Virus record (IMG/VR): IMGVR_UViG_3300028886_000011
Location: 1 to 49,146 of that record
Source of the DNA: a virus
Length of the DNA stretch: 49,146 nucleotides
Strand: one strand, 5' to 3'
Shown: piece after piece, positions 3,331 through 42,752 of the stretch
Layout: each line of letters opens with the position of its first letter
Position numbering within the stretch: the stretch's first letter is position 1
Translations under genes and position numbers: made by a program
Notes under the pieces: model-generated
What the model saw: only the letters and a program-made list of their open reading frames with translations
What the model was told of the DNA's origin: nothing
Database searches by the model: none

Positions 3331-3405
3331 TGGTTGCAGAGGTCGGACTTGAACCGACAATTTTTAGGTTATGAGCCTAACGAGATGCCTTTACTCTACC
3401 CTGCT
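3331..3405 (-). tRNA. tRNA with CAT anticodon (Met, or Ile2 if lysidinylated), CCA encoded
   Basis: Hand-folded cloverleaf. Acceptor AGCAGGG/CTCTGCA, anticodon stem TTAGG/CCTAA with loop CTCATAA, T arm GTCGG-TTCAAGT-CCGAC, 5-nt variable loop, 3' ACCA. Total 75 nt. Confidence 0.85.
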
Positions 3406-5034: not shown

Positions 5035-5227
5035 TGTCGGCTCTCCTGTTCCATCTCTCAACAATCTGCTTTTTATCATACGCAGTAATAATAACACCTA
5101 AACGGAGTGGACAATCACCAAGAACTGTTTTATGTGTCAAGAAAAGATAATGGTCTTTATCATTCCAATCCTCTTTCAATTTTTCACCGCAGAACGGGCA
5201 AGGTTTAAGCTGTTCCATCATTTTCAC
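5015..5227 (-). CDS. Lar-family restriction-alleviation-like Zn-ribbon protein
   Basis: PCPFCGEKL ... GDCP ... IVERWNRR matches the Lar family pattern (CPFCG ... WNRR). Confidence 0.6.
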   Translation of the reverse strand: MKMMEQLKPCPFCGEKLKEDWNDKDHYLFLTHKTVLGDCPLRLGVIITAYDKKQIVERWNRRADNGKEDI

Positions 5228-5483
5228 TCTCCTTATACTCGGGACACTCTTTGCGTTTCATCTCAACGTCAAGCTGTACTTCCGAGTATGCCTTAAAGAA
5301 ATCCTCCGGAAAAAACTTCATTTCAGCCTTACAGTTCGGGCAGGATTTACTCGGCTCTTTGACCTGAGAATAACATTTACTGCACTCATATCTGTACTGT
5401 GGCGGATAACTTGCTAAACAAATTGTTCTCCAAATTCCGACAGTTTTTCCAGTGCCGTAGGGCGTTTCTATCAGCTCACTCAT
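5205..5483 (-). CDS. Small Zn-ribbon protein
   Basis: ATG 5483 follows GGAGG. Contains CSKC ... CPNC. Confidence 0.55.
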   Translation of the reverse strand: MSELIETPYGTGKTVGIWRTICLASYPPQYRYECSKCYSQVKEPSKSCPNCKAEMKFFPEDFFKAYSEVQLDVEMKRKECPEYKESENDGTA

Positions 5484-5782: not shown

Positions 5783-6083
5783 CACTCCAATCCAAAGCCT
5801 GACCGCAATCAGGGCAATATGTAAAACAATCATTTTCTTCATCAACTGCTAAACGACTGCACTCACAAAAAGGTGCTTTTATACCTTTTGCGAATTTATG
5901 AGCATAGTATTCAGTTTCACGATACAAAGGCTTTTTCGGCACCTGCTTTTCAAGTGCGGATATACCGACTTTCAATGCCTCTATATCTTGCAAGAATACC
6001 TCGTCAAAGTCGTCACGGTGACAGAAACTTTCTCTGTCTTTTATCAAATCTTCAAGCTGATATATCGCTTTTTCTATCGTCAT
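5769..6083 (-). CDS. Small Zn-ribbon protein
   Basis: CEC ... CPDCG at the C-terminus. 104-aa ORF. Confidence 0.55.
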   Translation of the reverse strand: MTIEKAIYQLEDLIKDRESFCHRDDFDEVFLQDIEALKVGISALEKQVPKKPLYRETEYYAHKFAKGIKAPFCECSRLAVDEENDCFTYCPDCGQALDWSDENE

Positions 6084-6664
6084 TTTCTTATCTCTCGCTT
6101 TCTCGTTGGCTTTAAAAATTCCGCTGCCGTTGCACCTGCAACGTATCGTTTATAAAGCGTATTATATGCAATACCCGTTATTTCTGACCATTCTTTCAGC
6201 GTATGCAACACTCCATTGATTTCGATTTCAACGTATTTTTGCAAAGGTGCAATAAGTTCTGTACCTCTTTTGCCACGGCAGTATCGGCTTGTGATGAGTT
6301 TTGCATCAAGACACGCAATGCACGCCCATTCTTCATAAGTATGCGTTTTGCCGTTTATCGTGATATACGTTGTCTTTTTGGGTGCGATGAGGTCAATTCC
6401 TCGTTTTCCGTCATAGTATCTCTGCTTGATAGTACTTTTCGGAAGCCCCGTAATTTCCGCCCATTCCGCAAAAGTGTGAGTTTCACCGTTGACCGTTATC
6501 AATACAGGTTGCAGTATCTTTGGCGGCGCTATCAATGCAGTTCCTCTCATGCGAAACTTGTAGTACCTTTTTTTTATTGTCAATTCGCTTATGCCCGTTA
6601 TCTCCGCCCACTCTTTGAGCGTATGCGATTCGTCCCCGATTTTAACCTGCATTGACTGTCTCAT
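6080..6664 (-). CDS. DNA-binding protein with four tandem HTH repeats
   Basis: Four units of about 45 aa: HT(L/F/Y)xEW(A/S)EITG(I/L)...(T/L)I(K)xRYxxGxRGx(D/E)LIAP. Confidence 0.6.
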   Translation of the reverse strand: MRQSMQVKIGDESHTLKEWAEITGISELTIKKRYYKFRMRGTALIAPPKILQPVLITVNGETHTFAEWAEITGLPKSTIKQRYYDGKRGIDLIAPKKTTYITINGKTHTYEEWACIACLDAKLITSRYCRGKRGTELIAPLQKYVEIEINGVLHTLKEWSEITGIAYNTLYKRYVAGATAAEFLKPTRKREIRK

Positions 6665-9774: not shown

Positions 9775-9949
9775 TTTTTATATCTCCTAATATATAGCCT
9801 TCAAATTCAAGCCGTTCTTCGTCAGACAACGGACACCATTCGGGAATGCCTTTCCACTTCTTGTAACGCTCGAACAACGGCTTTATTTTCGGGTCACTTA
9901 TATCTACTTTGTAACCGTAACAATCGTCAGGAATAAATAAATTTTTCAC
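9743..9949 (-). CDS. Hypothetical protein
   Basis: 68-aa ORF in the operon. Confidence 0.45.
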   Translation of the reverse strand: MKNLFIPDDCYGYKVDISDPKIKPLFERYKKWKGIPEWCPLSDEERLEFEGYILGDIKNGKVYIRDNN

Positions 9950-10710
9950 CGTTTATCACCTGAAAGATAGGCTGACCACTGCTCAGCCATTGCTTTGGCT
10001 ATTCCTTCAAAAGTCTTTGCACGTTCTTTCGGGTCTTTTGATTTCCCCGTAACTTCGCCCTGTATAGCTTGCTTTTTCCAAATCGCAGAATTGCCGTTTA
10101 CATACATTCCTTTTGGCTCAACAATGTTTGTTGGTTTTAATTTCGGCAAATTTTTCAGCCACAAACACGTTTTTTTTGTGAATGGGTGCCCATATTCAAA
10201 AGGCTGTATTATCTGCGTATATTTTGGCAGCTCATATATTTTTGACGGAACGGGATTCTCAACGGCTATATGCTCGCAATCTGCATTGTATAATCTCAAA
10301 AAGAATCGTTTTGCTCGCAACCCCTGTTCGTACCTTTCTGTGTTAAGCTGCCCTGCTTTCGGGTATAGTCTGCAAGCCCCCGCATTTGAAAGGTATGTGC
10401 ATGGAGGGTGTGCAATTATCAAATCCCACTTATTTTCAATAGTGTGAGTTTCACCGTCCATGGTGCAGAAAATTATAAAATCATACGGTTCGCCACGACA
10501 ATTGTTAAGCGGTTCGATAATATTAAGTGCATCTGCTTTTATATGCCATTCGGGGTGTCCACCACTCGGTTCTTGTATGTCGCATGAATACGCTTCATGT
10601 CCTAACTTTCTGAAAGCTGTACATACCCTTTGGCTTTCTTCACACGCTACCAATACTTTCAATTTCAATTTCAACCCTTTCGATACCGTCCTCCGCCCAC
10701 ACTTTGTCAA
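9946..10710 (-). CDS. Putative DNA cytosine-C5 methyltransferase-like protein
   Basis: VLVACEESQRV...DLIIAHPPCTYLSNAG resembles the catalytic PC motif of C5-MTases. The start is uncertain because it overlaps the upstream gene by 71 nt. Confidence 0.45.
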   Translation of the reverse strand: MTKCGRRTVSKGLKLKLKVLVACEESQRVCTAFRKLGHEAYSCDIQEPSGGHPEWHIKADALNIIEPLNNCRGEPYDFIIFCTMDGETHTIENKWDLIIAHPPCTYLSNAGACRLYPKAGQLNTERYEQGLRAKRFFLRLYNADCEHIAVENPVPSKIYELPKYTQIIQPFEYGHPFTKKTCLWLKNLPKLKPTNIVEPKGMYVNGNSAIWKKQAIQGEVTGKSKDPKERAKTFEGIAKAMAEQWSAYLSGDKR

Positions 10711-12197: not shown

Positions 12198-12843
12198 AAT
12201 TCATACCTCCGTGTCCGTGCAGATAAATAAATCTGCTGTTTATACCTGCATTTTTTATGATAAAATCATCTGCTTTTGCCTTTGAGAGATGATTTTTCAA
12301 TACGTCTTTTTCATACGCATATTCGCCTTTTGATACCTTTTCGGCAATTCGCTGTTGAATTTCGTTGTCTTCATAATTGGCTTCAATCATATAGAAGTCA
12401 AAATTCGGTGCTATAATGCCGTTGAGGTCGTTTGTATCTGTCGCATAAATGATTTTTTCGCCGTCTTCGGTATAAATTTTATATCCACAATTTTGTACAT
12501 TGTGGTTAAGAGGTATCATTACAAGCGACACAAAATCAATGTAATTGTTTCTGGTATTCGGAGAATACACATCAATTCTCCATTTCTGCACACCGCAAGC
12601 TATCAATTTGTTGATAAGCCACTTACCGCACCCGAAACGGAGTGTCGGGCGTTTTTCGGCAAGTTTTTTTATCGTTGACGGGCAGAAATGGTCGCCGTGT
12701 TCGTGTGTGAGGAGTACCAGTTTCAAGCCCTTGATGTAGGGCTTGATGTCTTTGAACGGTACTCCGCAATCAATCAAGATTTCATCATTGATGATGACTG
12801 CATTTCCCTTTGAGCCTGTGGAGATTATATTATAAGTCATCAA
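12190..12843 (-). CDS. Metallo-beta-lactamase-fold hydrolase
   Basis: HEHGDH motif. Typical partner of phage recombination modules. Confidence 0.75.
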   Translation of the reverse strand: MMTYNIISTGSKGNAVIINDEILIDCGVPFKDIKPYIKGLKLVLLTHEHGDHFCPSTIKKLAEKRPTLRFGCGKWLINKLIACGVQKWRIDVYSPNTRNNYIDFVSLVMIPLNHNVQNCGYKIYTEDGEKIIYATDTNDLNGIIAPNFDFYMIEANYEDNEIQQRIAEKVSKGEYAYEKDVLKNHLSKAKADDFIIKNAGINSRFIYLHGHGGMNFE

Positions 12844-13440
12844 TATTCATCTCCTGTGGCGGTGTTTGCATCTGAACGGGAGTAGGCGGTGTTTCGGGGA
12901 GATTTTCGGGCTGAGGTTCATCAATTTCTGTCGGAACAAAATCGCCGTTTTCCGTCGTGTTTGCCGCTTTATTGTCCACTTCAAACGCTTTTTGCATTTC
13001 GGCTGACATAACGCCCCATTTGCTTATAATTTGACGAAGCATTGTCTTTTTTGCCATGCCGTCAAAATCTTTGTACCAAAATGAAGAATACTTCCACTCG
13101 TCTTTTTCGGGATATTTCTTTGCAAGAAAATCTTCATAGCTGACTTTCGGATACTGACCGCCCGTTGCATTTAACGAAAATGCAGGGCTGTATTTGTCAG
13201 CGTGTTTTAACATCTGCTTTTTAGACCAATACAGCACTTTTTTAAATCCGTTGAGATACTCGAACATCGCGTAATATCCGACGGTTTCAGCCGCCTCACG
13301 TTCATCAAAGTCCTGTATGGGATTGAGTTCAATTTCGTCATCAAAAGGATTGTAGTAACCAAGCTCGCCTTCCTTGATTTCCATAGCATTGATGTGCTTG
13401 TAAAATCCCGAACGTACCGCAAGCTGTATGTAACCTTTAT
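12830..13440 (-). CDS. recT: RecT recombinase, exon 2
   Basis: The frame is open from 13440 (YKGYIQLAVRSGFYKHINAMEIKEGE...FWYKDFDGMAKKTMLRQ). It joins in frame to exon 1. Confidence 0.8.
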
Positions 13441-14392
13441 CATTTATACCAACGATTTACCATTTGTGTTGGATTAGACTATCTCTTCATCTCACAAGAT
13501 GCCGTGCGCTTGGAGTGGTAACTCATCTTCCACTCTACACAGTTACATTCATCACTGTTAGTCGTTACACTACAAGTATCGGTAATGCTTTCCCTTGCAA
13601 GTCTTATATTTACCTTTCAAGTGTCCGCATAACGTAGACAGTCCGTATTTTTCGTTTGCGTCTTTTATAGACTTAAATACTTCGCCTGTCTCAATACAAA
13701 TGACTGGTTTATTACGATAACTATTATCTCTGTGTCGGTCTTTAAGCTTTGCACATCTCTTTTTTATCGTTTCTTGGCTTTGCTTTTTTCCAAGATTTGC
13801 GTTTCTGAGCTTTTCCCTTGTTTCCTCAGAAACACTATGTCCTACCTGCGGCCCTTTAAGATTGTTCTTTATAATCTGAGCTTTTTCTTCTTCTGTTTTG
13901 GAGTCCCATTGTTTTTTCCCGGCTTCTCTCAATTTTTCCTTTGTTTCCTCGCTAAAAGATATTCCGGTAATTCCACGTCCCCCACGCGTCCTGTTATATT
14001 CGGGCTTTAATTTTTCTATCCAAAAAATTTCCCGTTCGTCTAACAGAGACTTGTCACATTCTTCCAAGACTTCAAAAGAGAAATTATCATATCCGTACTT
14101 ATTATACGCACGTTTAAGGCTTTGGTTGGATTCGCTGCAAATATATTTGTGTTCTTTTTTTCTGCGTTGTATATCTACGCTTTGACCGATATATTTTTTT
14201 CCATTTACAAGATTTTTTATTAAGTAAATGCCAGTCATAATGTATCACCTCAAATACATTATAGCACGGTGTTGCCCTTATGTCAATTCTTTTTAGGATA
14301 TAGAGGCTGTGGAGGGTTTCCACCGTTAGCACATAAAACTGTACACCCCTGAGTAATAGGGTTCACACGGTTTTACTTGACCCATTAGGTTA
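13441..14392 (-). mobile_element. Group I intron (952 nt) carrying a GIY-YIG homing endonuclease
   Basis: P1 pairing: CUUGGCU (14399-14393) with GGUCAAG (14382-14376), giving a U.G wobble at the 5' splice site. Terminal G at 13441. Splicing restores GYKG and the reading frame. The endonuclease ORF is internal. Confidence 0.75.
13570..14238 (-). CDS. GIY-YIG homing endonuclease with NUMOD3 repeats (I-TevI-like)
   Basis: GIYLIKN...KYIGQS...R...EH...N, then SEETKEKLR and SEETREKLRNANLGKK repeats. Own RBS: GAGGTGA. Confidence 0.85.
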   Translation of the reverse strand: MTGIYLIKNLVNGKKYIGQSVDIQRRKKEHKYICSESNQSLKRAYNKYGYDNFSFEVLEECDKSLLDEREIFWIEKLKPEYNRTRGGRGITGISFSEETKEKLREAGKKQWDSKTEEEKAQIIKNNLKGPQVGHSVSEETREKLRNANLGKKQSQETIKKRCAKLKDRHRDNSYRNKPVICIETGEVFKSIKDANEKYGLSTLCGHLKGKYKTCKGKHYRYL

Positions 14393-14711
14393 AGCCAAGA
14401 ATAAACTGAGCATCATAATGTTCAGGAATGCCGTTTTTGGCTTTGACCTTGAACGGCACCATATAATACTGCCCCAGCTGAGGGGAGTGTGCAAGGTTAA
14501 GGCTTTCGGCAAGAAGTGAGGCACTGAGAATAGTGTTAGCCTCGCATTTCTGCAAATCGGGATTTGTCGCAACGGCTGACATGATAGCAGCTGTATATCT
14601 CTCAACTTTTTTCTTATCTCCGAGTGTCTGAGAGATAAACTTTTGGTAAGTAGGTGTAGATATTGCCGTTGAAAATTTGGGTTTCTGCATAGCCATCTGA
14701 TTGTTATTCAT
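14393..14711 (-). CDS. recT: RecT recombinase, exon 1
   Basis: ATG 14711 follows GGAGGT. ...AIMSAVATNPDLQKCEANTILSASLLAESLNLAHSPQLGQYYMVPF...AQFILG matches the RecT N-terminal region. Confidence 0.8.
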
Positions 14712-16426: not shown

Positions 16427-16672
16427 TCAGTATCTTTTGTTCGCCCTCGTCAAGAATTGCTTAGCCCATTCCTCGAAAGGATTTACGGGGATTTCCTTTT
16501 CCTCTTTGCCGAACTGGTCTGCAAGTGCTTTTGATACAGCGTTGAGTACACGTGCGTCATCAAGGGCTATTGCGAGTGCTTTGTATGCTGTGTCTTTGTC
16601 AACGTTGTATTCGGTCATGATATTGTCCAAGTGGCTGTTTCTGACCTCTTTAAACTGTTCTTTGCCGCTCAT
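16427..16672 (-). CDS. Hypothetical protein
   Basis: 81-aa ORF. Confidence 0.55.
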   Translation of the reverse strand: MSGKEQFKEVRNSHLDNIMTEYNVDKDTAYKALAIALDDARVLNAVSKALADQFGKEEKEIPVNPFEEWAKQFLTRANKRY

Positions 16673-16923
16673 TTTTCATTCTCCTTTCCGTCTGTGTCGG
16701 TCTGCTCTGCTGTTGCCTGCTGTATGCTGTCACCGAGCAATTCGACAAGTGTTACATTGAGTTTGCTTGCGAGTTTTGCAACGGTTCCCCATTTGGGATT
16801 TTTCTTTATGCCCTGTTCGATATGGCATATTGTCGGCTGAGATATTCCCGTGAGTGCCGCAAGTTCCGACTGAGAGTAACCGTTTGCATTACGCAAATTC
16901 TTCAAGTTTTCTGCAAGTGACAA
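16669..16923 (-). CDS. Cro-like XRE-family HTH regulator
   Basis: LKNLRNANGYSQSELAALTGISQPTICHIEQG. TTG 16923 follows AAAGGAGAGGA. First gene of the leftward early operon. Confidence 0.7.
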   Translation of the reverse strand: MSLAENLKNLRNANGYSQSELAALTGISQPTICHIEQGIKKNPKWGTVAKLASKLNVTLVELLGDSIQQATAEQTDTDGKENEK

Positions 16924-16961
16924 AATATCCTCTCCTTTCGTGAATTTTATTATCAAAGTTA

Positions 16962-16989
16962 TTGACAGAGTTAAAAAATGTTCTATAAT
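16962..16989 (+). promoter_or_regulatory. Near-consensus sigma-70-type promoter, rightward
   Basis: TTGACA (16962-16967), 16-nt spacer, TATAAT (16984-16989). Confidence 0.55.
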
Positions 16990-17043
16990 GGTATTAAGTA
17001 TATATTGTGGGGTTGCTGTATCTTTATCAATAGCTTTAATAAT

Positions 17044-17072
17044 ATTATATCAAAAAGTTTCATGAGTGTCAA
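17044..17072 (-). promoter_or_regulatory. Consensus sigma-70-type promoter, leftward (early operon)
   Basis: On the minus strand: TTGACA (17072-17067), 17-nt spacer, TATAAT (17049-17044). The direct repeat ATCAAAAAGTTTC occurs at 17049-17061 and 17080-17092. Confidence 0.6.
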
Positions 17073-17131
17073 TATAAAAATCAAAAAGTTTCTTATTTCG
17101 TAACTTTGCACAAAAAGAAAGGAGATTTATT

Positions 17132-17323
17132 ATGTATAACATTCAAACTGTTTCTAAAAGAATGAAGCTTGATGCTCGACAGCAAGGAATAAAACTCAAG
17201 GAAATGCTTGAAAGTTGTGGATTAAATGTAAATTTCATAATTCAAATGTCTGACCGCACGGGTGCTTTTGCCCTTGCTAAAATAGCCTTTAATCAAAATA
17301 TGATATTTTTAACCGATTTATGA
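17132..17323 (+). CDS. Short XRE-type HTH protein (CI-like, HTH domain only)
   Basis: GIKLKEMLESCGLNVNFIIQMSD...LAKIA. ATG follows AAAGGAG. Divergent from the Cro-like gene. Confidence 0.55.
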   Translation: MYNIQTVSKRMKLDARQQGIKLKEMLESCGLNVNFIIQMSDRTGAFALAKIAFNQNMIFLTDL

Positions 17324-17432
17324 CACATTTTTCCGAACGTTCCATACGATATTCCATACAAAAAATTTGCCTTTTTAGCATTATGTACAAATTTGTACTA
17401 AAAATCTTGTTTATTATTTTAAATAAAATATA

Positions 17433-17461
17433 TTGATTTTATTTAAAATCTATGTTATAAT
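17433..17461 (+). promoter_or_regulatory. Promoter with extended -10, overlapped by a 14-bp inverted repeat
   Basis: TTGATT, 17-nt spacer, TGTTATAAT. The inverted repeat ATTTTAAATAAAAT (17416-17429) / ATTTTATTTAAAAT (17436-17449) straddles the -35. Confidence 0.55.
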
Positions 17462-17520
17462 TACAGCTGTAAGAACAAATGAAAATCAACAGCCCACAGG
17501 GCAGAAAGAGAGAGATTAAG

Positions 17521-18264
17521 ATGAAAGAATTTAAATTTTATTCAGACGGATTTGAACTTCCCGTAAGCGTATGCAAAACACAAAAAGAAGCAGTCTATGA
17601 AATCACATCTGCAAGAGAAGCATTGAAACTTTTAGACAAAGAGGGTGAATGCGAAGGCGGTTGTGAAAAACTGATAATAGACGTTATTTACAAAGATGGA
17701 AGCACATATTACAATTCAAACAATTATGCAGAGGAAGGCAAGTTCAAAAGAACAGGTATTGCAAGAGCAATAGTATCCACCGAGTACGGAACGGTTGTTT
17801 TTGGTGATTTTGCTATAACGGAATACGGAGATGTAACCATAGAAGAAAGCGAAATCGAAGAGTACGGCGTATATGCAGGACAGTATGACGTAAAAGAGCA
17901 GGACGAGCAGGAAGTACAGGAAGTATCTGAAACAGAGACCAACGAAACAACGGCTGAAACGACAGCCGAGCAGGAAACAGTTGAGGGTATTTCCAAAATG
18001 GAAATACCCACAGAAACGGGCAACAGCGGATTTGAGTATACGAGAAGTCAGGCACAGGAAATCATTGTGGCAGGTACAAGCATAGCAAGAGAAAAGTATA
18101 GAGAAAAGCACGGTATATACAGTCCTATGGATTTGAAGAAGTTCAGCAGGAAACAGCTTGACGATTACTTATCAAAGGAACTTGATTACATTAACAAATT
18201 TTTGAACGATACCTTGCCAAAAGAAGTATTTAACGCCATGAAAGGAGAGACAATGTATGCTTAA
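17521..18264 (+). CDS. Acidic hypothetical protein (247 aa)
   Basis: ATG 17521 follows the conserved leader GGCAGAAAGAGAGAGATTAAG. The central E/T/Q-rich acidic tract is EQDEQEVQEVSETETNETTAETTAEQET. Confidence 0.65.
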   Translation: MKEFKFYSDGFELPVSVCKTQKEAVYEITSAREALKLLDKEGECEGGCEKLIIDVIYKDGSTYYNSNNYAEEGKFKRTGIARAIVSTEYGTVVFGDFAITEYGDVTIEESEIEEYGVYAGQYDVKEQDEQEVQEVSETETNETTAETTAEQETVEGISKMEIPTETGNSGFEYTRSQAQEIIVAGTSIAREKYREKHGIYSPMDLKKFSRKQLDDYLSKELDYINKFLNDTLPKEVFNAMKGETMYA

Positions 18265-18748
18265 AGTAAACACCATACACAGCTTGTCTTATAACACTGC
18301 TGAGCGTGAAAAATTCTGCGATTTGATAGATTTCTTTGAAAAAGAAATACAAGCCCTTGAAAGCAAAGATGACGAGATGTTTGAACAGTTAAACAACGAA
18401 GACTATGACGTTTGGGAACAGCAGTATGAGCAGGAACGTGACAAACTTTACGACAAACGTCGTAACGCATGGATAAACGCATTCGCAGCACAATTCCCGA
18501 ACAAAAAGAATGAATGGTTCGCTAATGTAATCAAGAAGTTTATTGATGAGGGTAAAGCAAATGGTGAAGCTTTTCACATATCAGCGAAGCAGTATGATTG
18601 CTTTTTGAAATACTGCTGTCACGAAGATGACAACAAAGAAGCATGGAAGTGTTACAAAACATATTGCCGTTGTTGCGGTTGTTTGATAACGCTTAAACGC
18701 CCAAGGCATGGCGGATATTACATGGAAATAACAATATTGACAGCATAA
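18257..18748 (+). CDS. Hypothetical protein with a Cys-rich C-terminus
   Basis: 163-aa ORF overlapping the upstream stop by 8 nt. Contains CYKTYCRCCGC. Confidence 0.6.
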   Translation: MLKVNTIHSLSYNTAEREKFCDLIDFFEKEIQALESKDDEMFEQLNNEDYDVWEQQYEQERDKLYDKRRNAWINAFAAQFPNKKNEWFANVIKKFIDEGKANGEAFHISAKQYDCFLKYCCHEDDNKEAWKCYKTYCRCCGCLITLKRPRHGGYYMEITILTA

Positions 18749-18817
18749 TAACAAGCTGACCTATCGGCTATACGGGCAATTTTTTATAAAAGACGGAAAG
18801 GAGAAAACGGTTTTGTT

Positions 18818-19246
18818 ATGAAGAAAGTAATAAGAGGACGTGTATATGACACGACCAAAGCAAAAAAGATTTACGAAACCGATAACGGATTAGGTCATAA
18901 TGACCTGTACTATATCAGCGAAACGCTGTATTGTAAAAAGACGGGAGAATATTTTTTGCATGGTGACGGCGGAGCAGGAACGGGATACGCCAAACACTGC
19001 GGAACAACCAGTGTTGGAGCGGAAGATATAGTACCACTGACATACAACGAAGCTAAACAGTGGGCAGAGGAACACATGAACGGTGATGAATACACAAAAG
19101 AGTTTGGTGACCCCGAAGCAGATTACACGAACAAAGTGATGACTATCAGCATAAGACAGAAAGCCATAGACAAAGTAAAGAGAGAAGCCCAAAAAAGAGA
19201 TATGAGCGTGAGCAAGTTAATAGAAGATTTGATAGAAAGCATTTAA
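18818..19246 (+). CDS. Hypothetical protein with a C-terminal ribbon-helix-helix-like domain
   Basis: The C-terminus VMTISIRQKAIDKVKREAQKRDMSVSKLIEDLIESI has a beta-strand/helix/helix (RHH) pattern. Last gene of its operon. Confidence 0.55.
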   Translation: MKKVIRGRVYDTTKAKKIYETDNGLGHNDLYYISETLYCKKTGEYFLHGDGGAGTGYAKHCGTTSVGAEDIVPLTYNEAKQWAEEHMNGDEYTKEFGDPEADYTNKVMTISIRQKAIDKVKREAQKRDMSVSKLIEDLIESI

Positions 19247-19250
19247 AAAA

Positions 19251-19280
19251 AATCCCCCGATTGTAACAAATCGGGGGATT
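19251..19280. terminator. Bidirectional intrinsic terminator between convergent genes
   Basis: 11-bp stem AATCCCCCGAT / ATCGGGGGATT, flanked by an A8 run on the left (a T run for the minus-strand transcript). Confidence 0.75.
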
Positions 19281-19282
19281 GA

Positions 19283-19489
19283 TTATTTGACCTGTTCTTC
19301 CGTTGCTCCGTGTTCTTCACGTTCGAGCAACCAATTTACAAATGCGTTCAACTTCATTCCACGATTTTCGGCAAGTTTCATATAGTCGCCTTTTTTGCCT
19401 TTCGGGAACATAACCGAGAATCTGTCGTATTTTTGCCTGTTAAAATCATTCCTGTACTGTGTCCCGTGTTCTTTTTCCCAGTCCGACAT
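19283..19489 (-). CDS. Ribbon-helix-helix (Arc/CopG-like) protein
   Basis: YDRFSVMFPKGKKGDYMKLAENRGMKLNAFVNWLLE has an RHH pattern. GGTGAT RBS. Confidence 0.55.
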   Translation of the reverse strand: MSDWEKEHGTQYRNDFNRQKYDRFSVMFPKGKKGDYMKLAENRGMKLNAFVNWLLEREEHGATEEQVK

Positions 19490-19512
19490 AATATCACCAC
19501 GCTTTCATAGAG

Positions 19513-19541
19513 ATTTTAGCATTTTTTCAATTATTACTCAA
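19513..19541 (-). promoter_or_regulatory. Promoter for the RHH gene
   Basis: Minus strand: TTGAGT, 17-nt spacer, TGCTAAAAT. The -35 overlaps repeat AATTATTACT (19529-19538). Confidence 0.45.
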
Positions 19542-19599
19542 TAATCAAAATGCACAATTTTGTTGATTGGACTTTGTTTATTATTTTTTTAAAAAACTA

Positions 19600-19628
19600 T
19601 TGAATTATTACTAAATAAGTGGTATGAT
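19600..19628 (+). promoter_or_regulatory. Promoter with extended -10 for 19687-20839
   Basis: TTGAAT, 17-nt spacer, TGGTATGAT. A second copy of AATTATTACT (19603-19612) lies in the -35/spacer. Confidence 0.5.
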
Positions 19629-19686
19629 AGTATCGACAAATAAATAAACAATTTGACAGCCGAAAGGCAGAAAGAGAGCGATTAAG

Positions 19687-20295
19687 ATGACAAAAAAGAT
19701 GTATAAAGCATTTGTAAAAAGCAAAGAAACAGGAGAACTCACAATCATAGAGAGTGAATACACAAGCAAAAAAGATTTTGCACGTGATTTGAGAGCAAAC
19801 GGATACGCAGTAAAGTTTATATCAACTCCCGAAAAGTTTGATGAAGACAGCGAAAATTACAATTGGGAACTCAAAAGACGTAAGAATGTCAGAGAAGCGA
19901 TGAAACAACACAAAGCAAGCAAAGAGCAGGCAGAAAGAGAGACGATTGATATGAAAACACAGGTAATTAACAACAATTCGGCAGAAATTCAGGTAGCAGT
20001 AGAAAATTGGTACATGAACGGGAAGCCATCTTCATCATATTTCACGATGAACGGAGAGAAGTACGCAGTGTTACCACGTTATGGCACCAGTAACGAATTC
20101 GATGCGTTTAAAGTCAAGACGTTTACGATTGGCGAAGGCACATATCATTATCCGTATTATGACCCCGAAACCCGTGAGCCGATTGACAGAATTGCAGTTG
20201 TAACAATCCCCGATGAGCTTGTTATCAAGAAAAAAGAGCAAATCGATGAAGCAAATCACGGTAATACATTATTCAAGGAATTTTTTAAGGTCTAA
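19687..20295 (+). CDS. Hypothetical protein (202 aa)
   Basis: ATG follows the same conserved leader (GGCAGAAAGAGAGCGATTAAG) as 17521. Confidence 0.65.
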   Translation: MTKKMYKAFVKSKETGELTIIESEYTSKKDFARDLRANGYAVKFISTPEKFDEDSENYNWELKRRKNVREAMKQHKASKEQAERETIDMKTQVINNNSAEIQVAVENWYMNGKPSSSYFTMNGEKYAVLPRYGTSNEFDAFKVKTFTIGEGTYHYPYYDPETREPIDRIAVVTIPDELVIKKKEQIDEANHGNTLFKEFFKV

Positions 20296-20383
20296 CGCTG
20301 ACGGCAGGGCGAATGCCCTGTAAAGCTGCACCGACATATCCGAAGCAGTCGGGAGCTAATAAAATATGAAAGAGGTTATCACT

Positions 20384-20839
20384 ATGAAAACAATGGTAAA
20401 AAATGACAGATGGAACGGTATCGAAACAGTAACAGTATGGTTTGATGATGATATGTCAACATACGAAATAATTGACAAAGAAAACGGCGAAACAATCGGG
20501 ATGATTTATGACGGAGAATTTTTAGACGAAGAAGGACAGGTTGATTATGATAAGCTGTACGAAACAATAGAGCTTGAAATAGTATTTCACATCAAAGCAA
20601 AAATAGAAACCCCCGACGAAGTTGAGATAGAAGAATATGACGAAGACGATGAAACGCCCGTAAATAAAAGACAGTATGATGTGTATTATACAGACGGCGT
20701 AAACGAAACATATACAACTCTTGACGCTGAAACGGCAGAAGAAGCACTTGAAGCAGAACAGATAGAAGTCTATGGTTGGAATCAAGAAGCAGGATATAAA
20801 AAATACAAAATAACAAAAGTTCATTACGCAATAGTATAA
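20384..20839 (+). CDS. Strongly acidic hypothetical protein
   Basis: ATG 20384 follows AAAGAGG. D/E-rich throughout (DEVEIEEYDEDDETP...). Confidence 0.6.
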   Translation: MKTMVKNDRWNGIETVTVWFDDDMSTYEIIDKENGETIGMIYDGEFLDEEGQVDYDKLYETIELEIVFHIKAKIETPDEVEIEEYDEDDETPVNKRQYDVYYTDGVNETYTTLDAETAEEALEAEQIEVYGWNQEAGYKKYKITKVHYAIV

Positions 20840-20892
20840 GATTACAAAGTCCATTGACGGCAGAGCGTAAAATAATAACCGTATGAAAAATT

Positions 20893-20932
20893 ATCCTCCA
20901 TTTCCGATAAGTTCGGGAATGGAGGATTTTTT
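20893..20932. terminator. Bidirectional intrinsic terminator
   Basis: 13-bp stem ATCCTCCATTTCC / GGGAATGGAGGAT (one G.U pair), T6 on the right, A-rich run on the left. Confidence 0.8.
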
Positions 20933-21287
20933 ATATCTCGTTTAGTTTACGCATTACATCATTGTACAATTTTACGTTAAAAAGCGAAACGGCAGACATC
21001 AGCTCGTCCATTACTGCCCAAATTTTGACGGCTGATTTACCGTCGATCAACTTTGAGAACTCGCTGTCAGATTGATAGTTGACAGTTGTTTCGCTATTGT
21101 CGGGCGGTGCATAGCTGTAAGTGGGTGTTTCCTTTTTGGAAACACCCACCGAGTTTTTCTCGGCAGTTGCTTGTAAATTGTTCAAAATGGTGTAATATGC
21201 TGCTAATTTGATACATGTATTTGCGTTTGGGTTGCGTTGTCCTTGACATTCGGCAATAGCCTCTATCAAATCATTTTCTGTTATCAA
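20931..21287 (-). CDS. Hypothetical protein
   Basis: 118-aa ORF, last gene of the post-lysis operon. Confidence 0.55.
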   Translation of the reverse strand: MITENDLIEAIAECQGQRNPNANTCIKLAAYYTILNNLQATAEKNSVGVSKKETPTYSYAPPDNSETTVNYQSDSEFSKLIDGKSAVKIWAVMDELMSAVSLFNVKLYNDVMRKLNEI

Positions 21288-25028: not shown

Positions 25029-25937
25029 TTACCCCTCATCATAAATTCGATTTACTTCTTTCTGCACATCATCATACAATGCACCCAGTCTTTCTTCTCT
25101 TTCCTGTCCGTTGCCGTACTTGCCCTGTATAACGTCACGTGCGATTTTATCAAGGTCAATTTTCTTTGTGTAGTCGAGTGCAATCCAGCCTTTCACACCG
25201 TCATATTCGATAAGTCCCCATTTATACTCACCGCCCGATGTCCAGTGTGTTACTTTTACAACGGCATTAAACGGCACTACTCCGAGTTTCTTGAAATCCA
25301 CACCTGCACCTTGTCTTATATTCAAGCCGTCTGTTGCGGTAACTTTTACGGCATAATCAACGACTTTTGAGGAATTAAGCTGATAAATTTCTATCTCTTT
25401 TTTGGTTGCAGTTGAAGTTGATTTTGTTTCGGTCTGCCAGTTCGGGCGGTAAAAGGCATAAACTGTCCAATCGTTGAAATTACGCCATTTTCTTCTAAAA
25501 ACAGACGTTTTCGCCCAGTTTGCGTTATTTCCGTCAACATTGCCTTCAAGAGTTGTAATCGTTGTCCCGTCAAAATCTTCAACTATGCCTACATGGTCAC
25601 AAAAATATTTGTCCTCTCTCGGATAATCGTTGTATCTGAGGAAAAACAAGTCGCCACGCTGTGGGGGCATATTCACCGACTTTTTAAACCATTTTCCGAA
25701 TTTGCCTTCTGAACCTCTCGGAATAGAGCCTGCACCGCCCTCGACCTTTTTGATATATTTCCCTATAAATCCACAATCTTTCATTATCGCACTCACGGCA
25801 TAAGCACACCAATGTGTGATATATCCGAGATGTAATTTCTTATTGCAGACGTAATCCCCGTTACAGCCCAGATATTTCCACGCTGTATCAATGAATTTTT
25901 CTTTATCGGTCACTTTTGTCATCTCCTTTTTCGTCAA
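25029..25937 (-). CDS. Endolysin: CHAP/NlpC-P60 amidase-peptidase, SH3 and CW_7 domains
   Basis: WCAYAVS...DHVGIV (Cys/His pair), an SH3-like segment LNIRQGAG...GWIALDY, and a CW_7-like segment VIQGKYGNGQEREERLGALYDDVQKEVNRI. The start is ambiguous (TTG 25937, ATG 25922 or GTG 25913). Confidence 0.85.
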   Translation of the reverse strand: MTKKEMTKVTDKEKFIDTAWKYLGCNGDYVCNKKLHLGYITHWCAYAVSAIMKDCGFIGKYIKKVEGGAGSIPRGSEGKFGKWFKKSVNMPPQRGDLFFLRYNDYPREDKYFCDHVGIVEDFDGTTITTLEGNVDGNNANWAKTSVFRRKWRNFNDWTVYAFYRPNWQTETKSTSTATKKEIEIYQLNSSKVVDYAVKVTATDGLNIRQGAGVDFKKLGVVPFNAVVKVTHWTSGGEYKWGLIEYDGVKGWIALDYTKKIDLDKIARDVIQGKYGNGQEREERLGALYDDVQKEVNRIYDEG

Positions 25938-41026: not shown

Positions 41027-42007
41027 TCATCTTTGAGTATATTTCGGTTTGCTTGCTTTCCATTCTTCATAGGATTTCCCGTCAAGTTTTGTAAGACTTC
41101 TTCCCGATAAATCGTGTTCAAGCCCTACCATTTGCTCTATAAGTGTACACCGACAATTATAGACCTCACTCGGCTTCCCCTGTGGGTCACCAGGATAACG
41201 ACAACCGTTAGAGAATTTACCGCCTATTTTTATTCTTTCGCCGTCAAGTTGTCGGTGTGAATGTCGTGTCCTGCCATCAAGAGTTGCTACCCACTGCATT
41301 TCACCCTCAATTCCCATTTTTTCGGCTCGTTTATATGCGTCCACTCTGCCAGCGTTTTGTGCTCCCGTGTACATTGTCCTTGCATACCTCACGGAATTTG
41401 AATAATTGCTGTTTGTAACTTTCTGCATTCGTTGTGCAAGGTTCGTTATTGCTTCCCCTTGCAGTATGCCTTGCAACAACTCTGACTGCACTTTCTTTTT
41501 GTTCCATGCAATGTCTTTCCCTGCCGCAATAGCACGTGCCACCTTTGAATTTGGCTCGGGAGGCGGTAATAAGTCGGGGTGTTCCCTGATTAACCGCTCC
41601 ACCGTCTGCCTGTCATACAAAACATATGATGTATCAATCATGGCTTTTTGCTCAATCTCGAATGTTCCATAATTGTGGTTGAGTGCGTACACATCGGGGA
41701 TATGCCCGTACACGATACTTCGGGCAATATCGTTGACATTGTGCATATCTTCGGCAAGAACATCTCTCATTTCTTCCCACCGTCTGCCGACAATAATTTG
41801 TCCCTGTCGCCAGTTGATGTATTCCTGCTGTGTGAGTTCACCTCTTGCGACCTGTGCTTGTCGTTCCTTATCCTTTTGCTTAAATGCTTTCAAATAGTTG
41901 CTCAGCTTTTTTTGTGTTTCCTTTGCAGCTCTTTGGTATTCTCTCCGCAATTCGCTCTCGACCTGTGCAAGCATAATGTCTGTTTGCTCATGTGCATAAT
42001 CTGCCAT
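41027..42007 (-). CDS. Head morphogenesis protein (MuF / SPP1 gp7 family)
   Basis: WVATLDGRTRHSHRQLDGE and NCRCTL motifs. Confidence 0.85.
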   Translation of the reverse strand: MADYAHEQTDIMLAQVESELRREYQRAAKETQKKLSNYLKAFKQKDKERQAQVARGELTQQEYINWRQGQIIVGRRWEEMRDVLAEDMHNVNDIARSIVYGHIPDVYALNHNYGTFEIEQKAMIDTSYVLYDRQTVERLIREHPDLLPPPEPNSKVARAIAAGKDIAWNKKKVQSELLQGILQGEAITNLAQRMQKVTNSNYSNSVRYARTMYTGAQNAGRVDAYKRAEKMGIEGEMQWVATLDGRTRHSHRQLDGERIKIGGKFSNGCRYPGDPQGKPSEVYNCRCTLIEQMVGLEHDLSGRSLTKLDGKSYEEWKASKPKYTQR

Positions 42008-42752
42008 TATTGCACCGCCTTATTTTTGTTTTTTGTGCCTGTTCAATCCTGTTCTTTGCAAGCTCAAAATAGTGTTCGTCAAGTTCTATCCCGATAAAGT
42101 TGCGATTTGTATTTACACACGCAACGCCTGTACTTCCTGCCCCCATGCAGTTATCAAGCACCGTTTCACCCTCATTTGTGTATGTCTTTATGAGATACTC
42201 CAACAAATCAACGGGCTTTTGTGTCGGGTGTACGGGCTTATCTTTGGAACAGTTGCATTGTGCAAATTTTATCACATCAACAGGATAACGGCTTCCGTCC
42301 TCACAAATTGTTTCACACAAATCTTGTTTTCCATAATTTGTACTTGATTTATTATGTATTGCACGATAATATTTGTGTCCGAATGTCTTTTGCGGATTAT
42401 AAGTCGGAAGTTTATCGTAAAAAATCAAGATGTTTTCGTGTGCTTTCAACGGCATTTTGTGAGAATTTAAATGCCCTGTCCCTTGTGCTTTCTGCCATAT
42501 CCATTCATAGCGGAATTGCTTTCTGTTTGCTTGTATCAAATCAGTTGTAAAAGGTTGTTGAGAAAATAGTGCTATTGCCCCCCCAATTTTCACTAATTTT
42601 CGATATTCAGCAAAAAGTACTTGTAAATCAATCTTTTTATCCCATTTGTTCATCGTTGTTCCAAACGGTAAATCACACAACACCATATCAACAGACTTGT
42701 CGGGAATGTCTTTCATCAAGTCCAAACAATCACCTTGATACAATGTCACCAT
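41988..42752 (-). CDS. N6-adenine / N4-cytosine DNA methyltransferase (beta class)
   Basis: DLPFG (a DPPY variant) at the N-terminus, HPTQKPVDLLEYLI, and VLDNCMGAGSTG (SAM site) at the C-terminus. Confidence 0.85.
   Translation of the reverse strand: MVTLYQGDCLDLMKDIPDKSVDMVLCDLPFGTTMNKWDKKIDLQVLFAEYRKLVKIGGAIALFSQQPFTTDLIQANRKQFRYEWIWQKAQGTGHLNSHKMPLKAHENILIFYDKLPTYNPQKTFGHKYYRAIHNKSSTNYGKQDLCETICEDGSRYPVDVIKFAQCNCSKDKPVHPTQKPVDLLEYLIKTYTNEGETVLDNCMGAGSTGVACVNTNRNFIGIELDEHYFELAKNRIEQAQKTKIRRCNNGRLCT

Follow-up and report, generated by a model that had tools for sequence, protein, structure and literature searches.

Anatomy of a plus-strand island with repeated promoter-leader cassettes and ribbon-helix-helix regulators in a gut-Clostridia-type phage, a candidate counter-defence locus

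In anti-CRISPR loci of the acr-aca type, a strong promoter that contains an inverted repeat drives the operon, the repressor gene comes last, and the Aca protein represses transcription (PMC9410906). Regulator and inhibitor can also be combined in one polypeptide, as in AcrIIA1, a bifunctional two-domain regulator-inhibitor with a helix-turn-helix (HTH) domain (10.1101/787200), or in AcrIE10, a bifunctional Acr-Aca protein of the ribbon-helix-helix (RHH) type whose RHH domain is N-terminal (PMC13530269). One report proposes that fast-evolving accessory genes serve mostly in counter-defence (10.1101/2023.04.06.535777), and mosaic phage proteins have been described to arise by fragment shuffling, in proteins that are thought to interact with the host (PMC10684548). 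Here we describe a locus that can be compared with these systems, namely an island of plus-strand genes at 17132-20839 of the IMG/VR virus record IMGVR_UViG_3300028886_000011, of which the whole stretch of 49,146 nucleotides was analysed (positions 1 to 49,146; hereafter the window). The window has 39.8% G+C and carries a 127-bp direct terminal repeat at its ends, and it thus represents a complete, circularly assembled genome. The phage is of the gut-Clostridia type.

A codon-score gene call over the whole window gives 73 genes on the minus strand and 5 on the plus strand, all of the latter within 17479-20839. With open reading frame (ORF) A (63 aa, 17132-17323) as a sixth, the plus-strand genes remain confined to 17132-20839, which agrees with the original prediction that this block is the only one on that strand. 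Because all plus-strand genes sit there, the island takes up the space that is left between the end of the late and the start of the early operon. It has the properties of a moron region, i.e. its own promoters and terminators, a location between conserved modules and a content that varies among relatives, and both of its operons are closed by a terminator, operon 1 at 19251-19280 and operon 2 at 20893-20927. We hold with moderate confidence that the island is an autonomous, repressor-controlled accessory locus of the moron type that expresses host-directed proteins, which likely act in counter-defence or host takeover.

The two extended -10 promoters that had been predicted are indeed present: P1 (TTGATT-17-TG-TATAAT, 17433..17461, plus strand), which is conserved in relatives, and P2 (TTGAAT-17-TG-TATGAT, 19600..19628, plus strand). 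As the region contains 16 promoter-like matches versus 15.3 in shuffled sequences, i.e. no excess, it is the position and the conservation in relatives that make P1 and P2 credible, and not the scan counts. A perfect inverted repeat, ATTTTAAATAAAAT-N6-ATTTTATTTAAAAT (17416..17449), overlaps the -35 element of P1. Its 14-nt arms were reached in 0 of 1000 shuffles and are conserved in relatives; we regard it as a candidate operator and propose it as the site of the regulator D that is encoded at the end of operon 1. At P2, the corresponding element is a 19-nt direct repeat (matched in 0 of 300 shuffles) that is common to P2 and to a candidate promoter of the divergent regulator gene E (TTGAGT-17-TG-TAAAAT, 19513..19541, minus strand). 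Copy 1 of this repeat, TTCAATTATTACTCAATAA (19526..19544), lies over the -35 element of the E promoter, and copy 2, TTGAATTATTACTAAATAA (19600..19618), spans the -35 element and the spacer of P2, both being candidate operators. A repeat within the core promoter, as known from acr-aca loci, can therefore be recognised in the sequence at P1 as well as at P2. Farther upstream, a distal palindrome, TGTACAAATTTGTACT (17384..17399), starts 49 nt upstream of the P1 -35 element, and the same motif recurs at the same offset from P2 as TGCACAATTTTG (19551..19562). The pattern TG[C/T]ACAA[A/T]TTTG has exactly two matches in the genome (17384-17395 and 19551-19562), each of which starts 49 nt upstream of the respective -35 element. 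In other intergenic types, split inverted repeats (TGCACAAA..TTTGTGCA and TATACAAA..TTTGTATA) occupy the equivalent distal site.

Each promoter is followed by a leader, and the near-identity of the two leaders that had been noticed earlier not only stands but extends to a third copy that had been missed. Leader 1 (17489..17520, plus strand) has the core ACAGCC-CACAG-GGCAGAAAG, with the hairpin GCCC-ACA-GGGC at 17491-17501 and a subsequent GAAAGAGAGAG that resembles a Shine-Dalgarno sequence (SD). Leader 2 (19656..19686, plus strand) has the core ACAGCC-GAAA-GGCAGAAAG, with the hairpin GCC-GAAA-GGC followed by the SD-like GAAAGAGAGCG. Both share the 25-nt segment GGCAGAAAGAGAG[A/C]GATTAAGATGA (17500-17524 and 19666-19690), for which 0 chance matches are expected. 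The third copy, GGCAGAAAGAGAGACGATTGATATG (19929..19953, plus strand), contains a 1-nt insertion and lies in frame inside ORF F (19687-20295), where it is read as ..AERETIDM... This copy is the former ribosome-binding site of the second module of F, and an internal start at 19951 within ORF F is possible.

For comparison, eight related loci (L004-L011) were obtained by exact-protein look-ups and one, L015, from IMG/VR. In L004-L011 and L015, the core ACAGCC-(CACAG, GAAA or CAAA)-GGCAGAAAG follows five different promoter types, and while the A-rich 5' part of the leader and the flanks differ among relatives, the core of ~20 nt is kept. The 3' SD segment occurs in three alleles, which are x (AGAG[A/C]GATTAAG), y (ATGAGGTAA..) and z ([A/G]TGAGGTTATCAC[A/T]). 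As GAAAGGAG, which is of the GAAAG type, is the usual SD of the window phage, the conserved core amounts to a GC mini-hairpin that abuts the 5' half of the SD. An exact leader search of IMG/VR returned nothing, and a degenerate pattern found one true homologue in IMG/VR, which is L015; 26 matches to the degenerate pattern in JGI metagenomes were rejected as GC-rich chance matches. A strict co-variation of the two leaders between genomes, with both being x-type in the window and both y-type in L004, was also ruled out, since L007 combines a z-type with a y-type leader.

The ends of the homologous segments indicate what such leaders may be good for. In BLASTN comparisons, the window and L007 are homologous up to 17518, and window positions 19656-19930, which comprise leader 2 and the first module of F (F1), match L007 5553-5832, which comprise leader 1 and the F1 homologue. 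The homology to L004 stops at 19675 and resumes at 19984, and the F1 cassette therefore is an insertion that is flanked by two leader copies. In case of L005, the homology begins at the z-type SD of gene G. The simplest reading of these breakpoints is that the leader is a portable expression cassette that at the same time provides a short homology for cassette exchange, and the RecT protein of the phage may take part in this exchange.

Could the leader instead be a cis-regulatory RNA, i.e. a translational operator or processing site by which both operons are co-regulated post-transcriptionally? The retention of the ~20-nt core between diverging flanks would agree with this, as would a stem that is kept with three different loops (ACA, GAAA, CAAA) directly 5' of the SD, and a similar GCC-GAAA-GGC-SD arrangement in the distant locus L017. 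The hairpins that had been noticed earlier are predicted in every leader, but they are weak (-6.1 and -4.9 kcal/mol) and marginal in comparison with shuffled sequences: the stem has only 3-4 bp, the z-scores of the fold range from -2.6 to 0, and the Rfam covariance models gave no match within 16900-21000, neither at the gathering score nor at E<=1. Moreover, the GAAAG part is nothing else than the usual SD of the phage, and as the core coincides with recombination breakpoints, this alone can explain the conservation of the leader. We therefore regard a specific regulatory RNA as rather improbable, and a portable hairpin-plus-SD cassette that doubles as a recombination joint as the better reading of the leader.

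The proteins that are expressed from these cassettes are restricted to the clade of the window phage. Operon 1 starts with B (247 aa, 17521..18264, plus strand), which has an N-module (BN, residues ~1-105) and a C-module (BC, 154-247) on either side of an acidic T/E/Q-rich linker (106-153), and which is itself clade-restricted. It continues with C (163 aa, 18257..18748, plus strand), which has a Cys-rich C-terminus and belongs to operon 1 or 2 depending on the relative. Operon 2 contains F with its modules F1 (88 aa, 19687..19950, plus strand), which is an inserted cassette in comparison with L004 and in L007 and L008 makes up the N-terminal part of the gene that opens operon 1, and F2 (114 aa, 19951..20295, plus strand), which stands alone as a gene in L004, L007 and L010 and elsewhere forms part of fusions with other modules. 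It ends with G (151 aa, pI 4.05, 20384..20839, plus strand), which comprises an N-module (GN, 1-75), the acidic linker EVEIEEYDEDDETP and a C-module (GC, 97-151), and whose ribosome-binding site has its homologue in the z-type leader of L005. In L003, a unit of P2, leader and G' is present in the opposite relative orientation.

The seven cargo modules (BN, BC, C, F1, F2, GN, GC) occur in changing combinations. Among relatives, the pairings BN+BC, BN+F2, F1+F2, F1+BC, F2+GC and GN+GC were found, and further arrangements have GN or BN with other partners, or F2 or BC alone. Two kinds of junctions connect the modules. The first kind are the T/E/Q-rich acidic linkers, such as EVEIEEYDEDDETP, and the second kind are leaders that are translated in frame, such as ..AERETIDM.., ..KEVITM.. 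or ..TAERQKDKVIIM.... As the leader has no in-frame stop codon, neighbouring genes can fuse into two-domain proteins. With pairwise dN/dS values (ratios of nonsynonymous to synonymous substitution rates) of 0.05-0.29, the cargo modules are under purifying selection and thus are constrained proteins rather than decaying ORFs.

That these proteins belong to no recognisable family, as had been stated before, holds true: B, C, F and G gave no match in Pfam, PHROGs, NCBIfam, PADLOC or PDB sequences, save a sub-threshold match of F to DUF7424. In databases of 1.8-5.8 billion proteins, there are 17 relatives of B, 11 of F and 10 of G, all from the same clade. Scans of IMG/VR for relatives of B and F yielded nothing, and no GenBank phage matched the island in a megablast search. 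The original prediction had further considered B and G as strongly acidic proteins that could act by DNA mimicry. For G the acidity is evident, as its pI is 4.05-4.09 and its net charge -28, it is the second most acidic of 78 proteins, and all three of its parts are acidic. B, however, lies only at about the 10th percentile (pI 4.5-4.6), with 16 of its 23 net negative charges in the 48-aa low-complexity linker, and its N- and C-module, both folded, carry little net charge. The case for DNA mimicry is thus weak, because the charge of B is mainly in a disordered linker and the AlphaFold2 (AF2) model of G reaches a mean predicted local distance difference test score (pLDDT) of only 62, with nothing significant among its PDB fold matches (best E=0.64). 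Pfam gave no ArdA or Ocr match in the island, and a model of such low confidence allows a judgement on the fold of G only with reserve. For this reason, the top fold match of G, AcrF1 (E=0.64 over 45 columns), was rejected.

The last gene of operon 1, D (142 aa, 18818..19246, plus strand), is directly followed by the terminator. As had been predicted, operon 1 ends with a protein that carries an RHH domain at its C-terminus: the C-terminal 35 residues match DUF6364 with 28.0 bits (curated cut-off 27.3), and further Pfam matches to RHH_1 and CopG lie below the cut-off. The D homologue of L012 passes RHH_1, the profile of the D family matches CopG and MazE7 weakly, and the AF2 model of D shows both RHH helices. 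By these sequence matches, the C-terminus of D belongs to the RHH superfamily. The N-terminal 100 residues are modelled with confidence (pLDDT 91.5) as an all-beta domain that is followed by two helices. Foldseek found no fold match for the model in the PDB (best E 0.12), and Sec3 (E=0.12) and Pur-alpha (0.47) were rejected as noise. In BFVD, the model matches only uncharacterised phage proteins, and as far as can be judged from the model, the N-terminal part of D is a new all-beta domain. PDB sequence searches with D and E gave no significant match.

D is 99% identical in all clade members, with a dS of ~0-0.012, whereas the flanking genes show a dS of 0.15-1.1 (versus L004 and L007). The P1 region is equally invariant across the clade. 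The near-identity of the D DNA suggests either that this segment was recently swept or exchanged, or that it is constrained at the nucleotide level. Outside the clade, the D family is common in mobile elements of Clostridia. It comprises 174 tblastn-confirmed loci in GTDB genomes, mostly of Clostridia, and occurs in two forms, one of 142 aa and one of 101 aa that consists of the N-domain only; among the GTDB loci examined, no gene family was found repeatedly beside D. In the temperate Lactobacillus phages LFP01 and JNU_P7, D homologues are located between endolysin and integrase. A D homologue also exists in a small inovirus (L097, bajarodino virus 27, 1195-1548); this inovirus and a second one with an E homologue (L098) have genomes of 5.8-6.3 kb and come from animal faeces.

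On a Methylobacterium plasmid, a full-length D homologue (28% identity) that is annotated as HicB antitoxin is encoded 8 nt upstream of a PemK/MazF toxin gene, and its C-terminus matches Pfam HicB. This might suggest that D is the antitoxin of a toxin-antitoxin or addiction module with the architecture of HicB, in which a neutralising N-domain precedes the RHH, and with a neighbouring cargo gene as the toxin. In the window, however, D is followed by a terminator and not by a gene, no recurring neighbour of D exists in the GTDB loci examined, no PemK homologue was found in the ORFs of 80 loci, and the N-domain of D has no fold match to HicB structures. The toxin-antitoxin reading was therefore rejected for the locus of the window, where no toxin is co-transcribed next to D, and we consider it extremely unlikely.

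Beyond the bidirectional intrinsic terminator that the convergent genes D and E have in common (19251..19280) follows E (68 aa, phrog_13890, 19283..19489, minus strand), a probable RHH repressor gene that is divergent from P2. E itself has no Pfam match, but the E allele of L005 matches ParG (E=0.06) and Arc (E=0.18) weakly, and the E profile aligns in register with the RHH part of the D family (hhalign probability 84%, 33 columns). Of the earlier claim of a separate RHH gene divergent from operon 2, the orientation thus is certain, while the assignment of E as an RHH protein is probable. Three E alleles exist (100, 76 and 56% identity to the window copy), and they match three types of the E-P2 intergenic region, each of which has its own related pair of repeats, with one copy at the E promoter and the other at the -35 element and spacer of P2. 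We infer that D pairs with the P1 palindrome and E with the repeats over P2 and over its own promoter. In the inovirus L098 (Dulem virus 64), the E homologue (5045-5332) is the sole gene on its strand and, by analogy, sits where a phage repressor would be expected.

Two RHH regulators at a small operon bring to mind the immI region of phage P22, in which the RHH repressors Mnt, which is divergent, and Arc control an antirepressor operon. If the island were such a secondary immunity module, F, G or B would be antirepressors that act against the own repressor or against repressors of resident prophages. One of the two RHH-type regulators is indeed divergent from a small operon, a switch of the cI/Cro type adjoins, D has a weak PHROG match to an Arc-like repressor, and the inovirus E homologue is the sole gene on the opposite strand. 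As the cargo contains no ANT, Bro or KilA-type domain, and as its extreme mosaicism is atypical of antirepressors, we nevertheless think it very doubtful that the island is an immI-like module.

The location of the island becomes understandable from more distant relatives. L012 and L013 represent a temperate phage whose D homologue is 45-48% identical. In this phage, repressor and integrase are followed by a plus-strand array of small genes, D among them, and then by minus-strand lysis genes. L014 is the integrated form of the L012/L013 phage, and host pst genes abut the array. In integrating relatives, the position that the island occupies in the window is next to attP. In the clade of the window, the segment with integrase and attP is missing, and in comparison with L004, one deletion junction (window 17290-17330) is common to the window, L006 and L007; the segment is absent at this same junction from L007, L008 and L006. 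No integrase was found among the ~39 larger ORFs of the window that were scanned. The 3' end of ORF A coincides with the deletion junction, where ~430 bp have been removed, and L004 (1300-1740) keeps these ~430 bp, including a tRNA/tmRNA-like 3' end, GGTTCGATTCCCCTCGTCTCCACCA, with a weak cmscan match only. An 84-aa ORF of L004 begins, in our reading, like the N-terminus of a tyrosine integrase, but BLASTP against the L012 integrase and a Pfam search gave nothing and tblastn one weak match. The window clade looks like an ex-temperate lineage that has lost integrase and attP.

This history bears on whether the genes serve the lytic phage or the lysogen. If the island were a moron region for lysogenic conversion or superinfection exclusion, its genes would be expressed from the prophage and would benefit or protect the lysogen. 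An equivalent island indeed lies at the prophage end in integrating relatives, between attP/integrase and the lysis genes, the units of the window island are autonomous with a promoter and a terminator each, and the promoters are of the host sigma-A type. However, no integrase was detected among the ~39 larger window ORFs that were scanned, L007, L008 and L006 lack integrase and attP, and ORF A seems to be truncated; the island is nevertheless kept under purifying selection. It encodes no membrane or Sie-like proteins and has no PADLOC match, and the cargo of a related cassette includes an ArdC homologue. We therefore judge a conversion or exclusion function to be unlikely, and the retention of the island where no integrase was found argues for a role in lytic infection.

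Cassettes of this kind are not limited to the window clade. The array of L012 (5372-8528) has four near-identical cassettes of ~80 nt that drive four units of small unknown genes, and each cassette consists of a perfect TTGACA-17-TG-TATAAT promoter, repeats (TAGTCTAT twice, and ATGCGCAT) and a common leader. The D homologue is the last gene of the third unit, and the regulator-last arrangement recurs in L012, L017, L058, L059 and L061. Pairs of promoter cassettes flank D in L017, L058, L059 and L061, and in L051 both cassettes follow shortly after D. Each cassette of L017 contains the 14-bp palindrome AATTAGCGCTAATT twice, and the L017 leader has GCC-GAAA-GGC directly before the SD. In L051, the cassette right after D drives an ArdC homologue (ArdcN, 58 bits versus a cut-off of 22.6, with an additional metallopeptidase domain). 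The two cassettes of L051 (8446-10162) are terminator-promoter cassettes whose 18-bp spacer element, ACATTTACATCCAAATGT, is exactly reverse-complemented in the second copy, and the ArdC-like unit lies between them. Beside the D homologue of L059, a cassette drives a 65-aa acidic protein (6009-6206) with a sub-threshold match to AcrIC5 (20.2 bits versus 27, E=7e-4), which we did not use as evidence.

How might the island function? Two promoters of the host sigma-A type would drive two short operons, each equipped with an operator-like repeat and the same portable 5' untranslated region (5'-UTR). D, acting at the P1 palindrome, and E, acting at the repeats of P2 and of its own promoter, would be the likely repressors, and expression would come in a burst and then be shut off, as in acr-aca loci. 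The leader would serve as a joint for homologous recombination by which cargo is swapped, possibly via the phage RecT, and the small, clade-restricted and mostly acidic cargo would bind host proteins early in infection, in counter-defence or host takeover. Counter-defence is the most likely function in our view, on the basis of the layout, the position, the clade-restricted mosaic cargo, the retention without integrase and the association with ArdC; this reading draws on no homology of the window's own cargo. Of the acr-aca-like character that had been ascribed to the locus, the layout, the regulator gene at the operon end and the core-promoter repeats could be substantiated, whereas the cargo has no match to a known anti-defence family.

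Several observations weigh against this reading. Neither by sequence nor by fold does the cargo resemble known anti-defence, defence, toxin or antirepressor families, and its gene-wide dN/dS carries no signal of an arms race or of diversifying selection. E and P2 are adjacent, and the co-variation of E alleles with intergenic types could thus be plain linkage. The D gene of L004 has its own promoter with a different inverted repeat, which is at odds with a single D operator. The leader hairpin is thermodynamically marginal and without real covariation, and the ArdC association is one locus of 83. Finally, the equivalent position in temperate siphoviruses also hosts genes for lysogenic conversion and superinfection exclusion.

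The surroundings of the island are those of an otherwise minus-strand genome. The first gene of the early operon is an XRE HTH gene (16669-16956), after which come DUF1351, RecT, a metallo-hydrolase, RusA, a DNA methyltransferase, a replication initiator and a DnaC-like loader. The genes for terminase, portal-type and tail proteins are also on the minus strand, as is a lysis cassette with an endolysin gene at 25029-25937, and the late operon closes with 6-8 unknown genes and ends at 20931. A strong intrinsic terminator with a 15-bp stem (20893..20927) separates G from this end. At the other border of the island, a perfect-consensus promoter of the sigma-70 type (TTGACA-16-TATAAT, 16962..16989, plus strand) lies upstream of ORF A and faces the early promoter, which is a perfect-consensus extended -10 promoter (17044..17072, minus strand) that drives the operon starting with the XRE HTH gene. 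The two promoters (16962-16989 and 17072-17044) are convergent, with predicted starts ~40 nt apart and hence an overlap of the 5' transcript ends of ~40 nt, and this convergent-promoter switch sits between the XRE early gene and ORF A. ORF A (17132..17323, plus strand), for which a Pfam search gave no match, resembles, as judged by eye, an XRE-type HTH protein that ends after helix 4.

The recT gene of the window (12833-14711, minus strand) is in two pieces. The L007 RecT aligns to 14711-14394 with its residues 1-106 and to 13438-12833 with its residues 108-300, and the ~955 bp in between carry an ORF for a GIY-YIG homing endonuclease (13570-14238). A group I intron match at 13456-13645 is weak and sub-threshold (15.8 bits, E=0.32), and the interruption is probably an intron with a homing endonuclease. 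Outside the island, two orphan DNA methyltransferases and a ParB_N-DUF4417 protein (9946-10710, 41988-42752 and 1890-2939, all minus strand) may possibly provide anti-restriction functions. The phage also encodes a tRNA-Met with the anticodon CAT (3331-3405, minus strand).

What follows from the counter-defence reading, should it apply? Aca genes have been an anchor for the discovery of anti-CRISPRs in Proteobacteria, and we know of almost no anti-defence genes from phages of gut or rumen Clostridia. If the RHH proteins of the D family are Aca-like repressors, they could become a guilt-by-association anchor for anti-defence genes in these phages. One may go further and suppose that D-family RHH proteins together with repeated promoter-operator-leader cassettes mark widespread, so far undescribed Aca-like counter-defence islands in phages and prophages of gut Clostridia, that a translatable 5'-UTR serves as expression signal and exchange site and thereby gives rise to combinatorial two-domain inhibitors, and that D is bifunctional, i.e. 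an orphan HicB-like neutraliser of a host toxin or defence protein that is fused to a repressor domain; we offer this as a speculation that is unlikely to hold as a whole. In any case, the locus is an unusually clear case of a short expression cassette that doubles as a recombination joint, moves genes between operons and fuses them in frame, and the value of the finding lies in a well-defined candidate rather than in a demonstrated system.

Compared with the described systems, the island is most reminiscent of acr-aca loci, with which it shares the core-promoter repeat in a strong, constitutive promoter and the order of small, unrelated proteins of fast turnover first and a DNA-binding regulator last. 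It differs from them by a cargo without Acr homology and by its two regulators and two promoters. The described Aca families are HTH proteins, whereas D and E give matches of the RHH type only and none to HTH. Like AcrIIA1 and AcrIE10, D has two domains, one of which is DNA-binding, but the RHH domain is N-terminal in AcrIE10 and C-terminal in D. With the morons in the region between lysin and att of temperate siphoviruses, the island has in common that autonomous units lie between conserved modules and that their content varies among close relatives; what sets it apart are the repeated promoter-leader cassette, the dedicated RHH regulators and the exchange at the leader and within reading frames. 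The immI region of P22 likewise has two RHH repressors, one of them divergent, over a small non-essential operon, but the island lacks an Ant-like protein, D has an extra domain of 100 aa, and the cargo is mosaic. HicB antitoxins and D agree in the domain order, with an N-domain and a C-terminal RHH, and one D homologue is encoded directly upstream of a MazF/PemK toxin, whereas the N-domain of D has no HicB fold match and no toxin is adjacent in the window or in 80 loci. As in the mosaic phage proteins that arise by fragment shuffling (PMC10684548), the modules of the island recombine pairwise, but in the island the junctions consist of a translatable 5'-UTR and an acidic linker of low complexity, and all of this takes place within one small locus.

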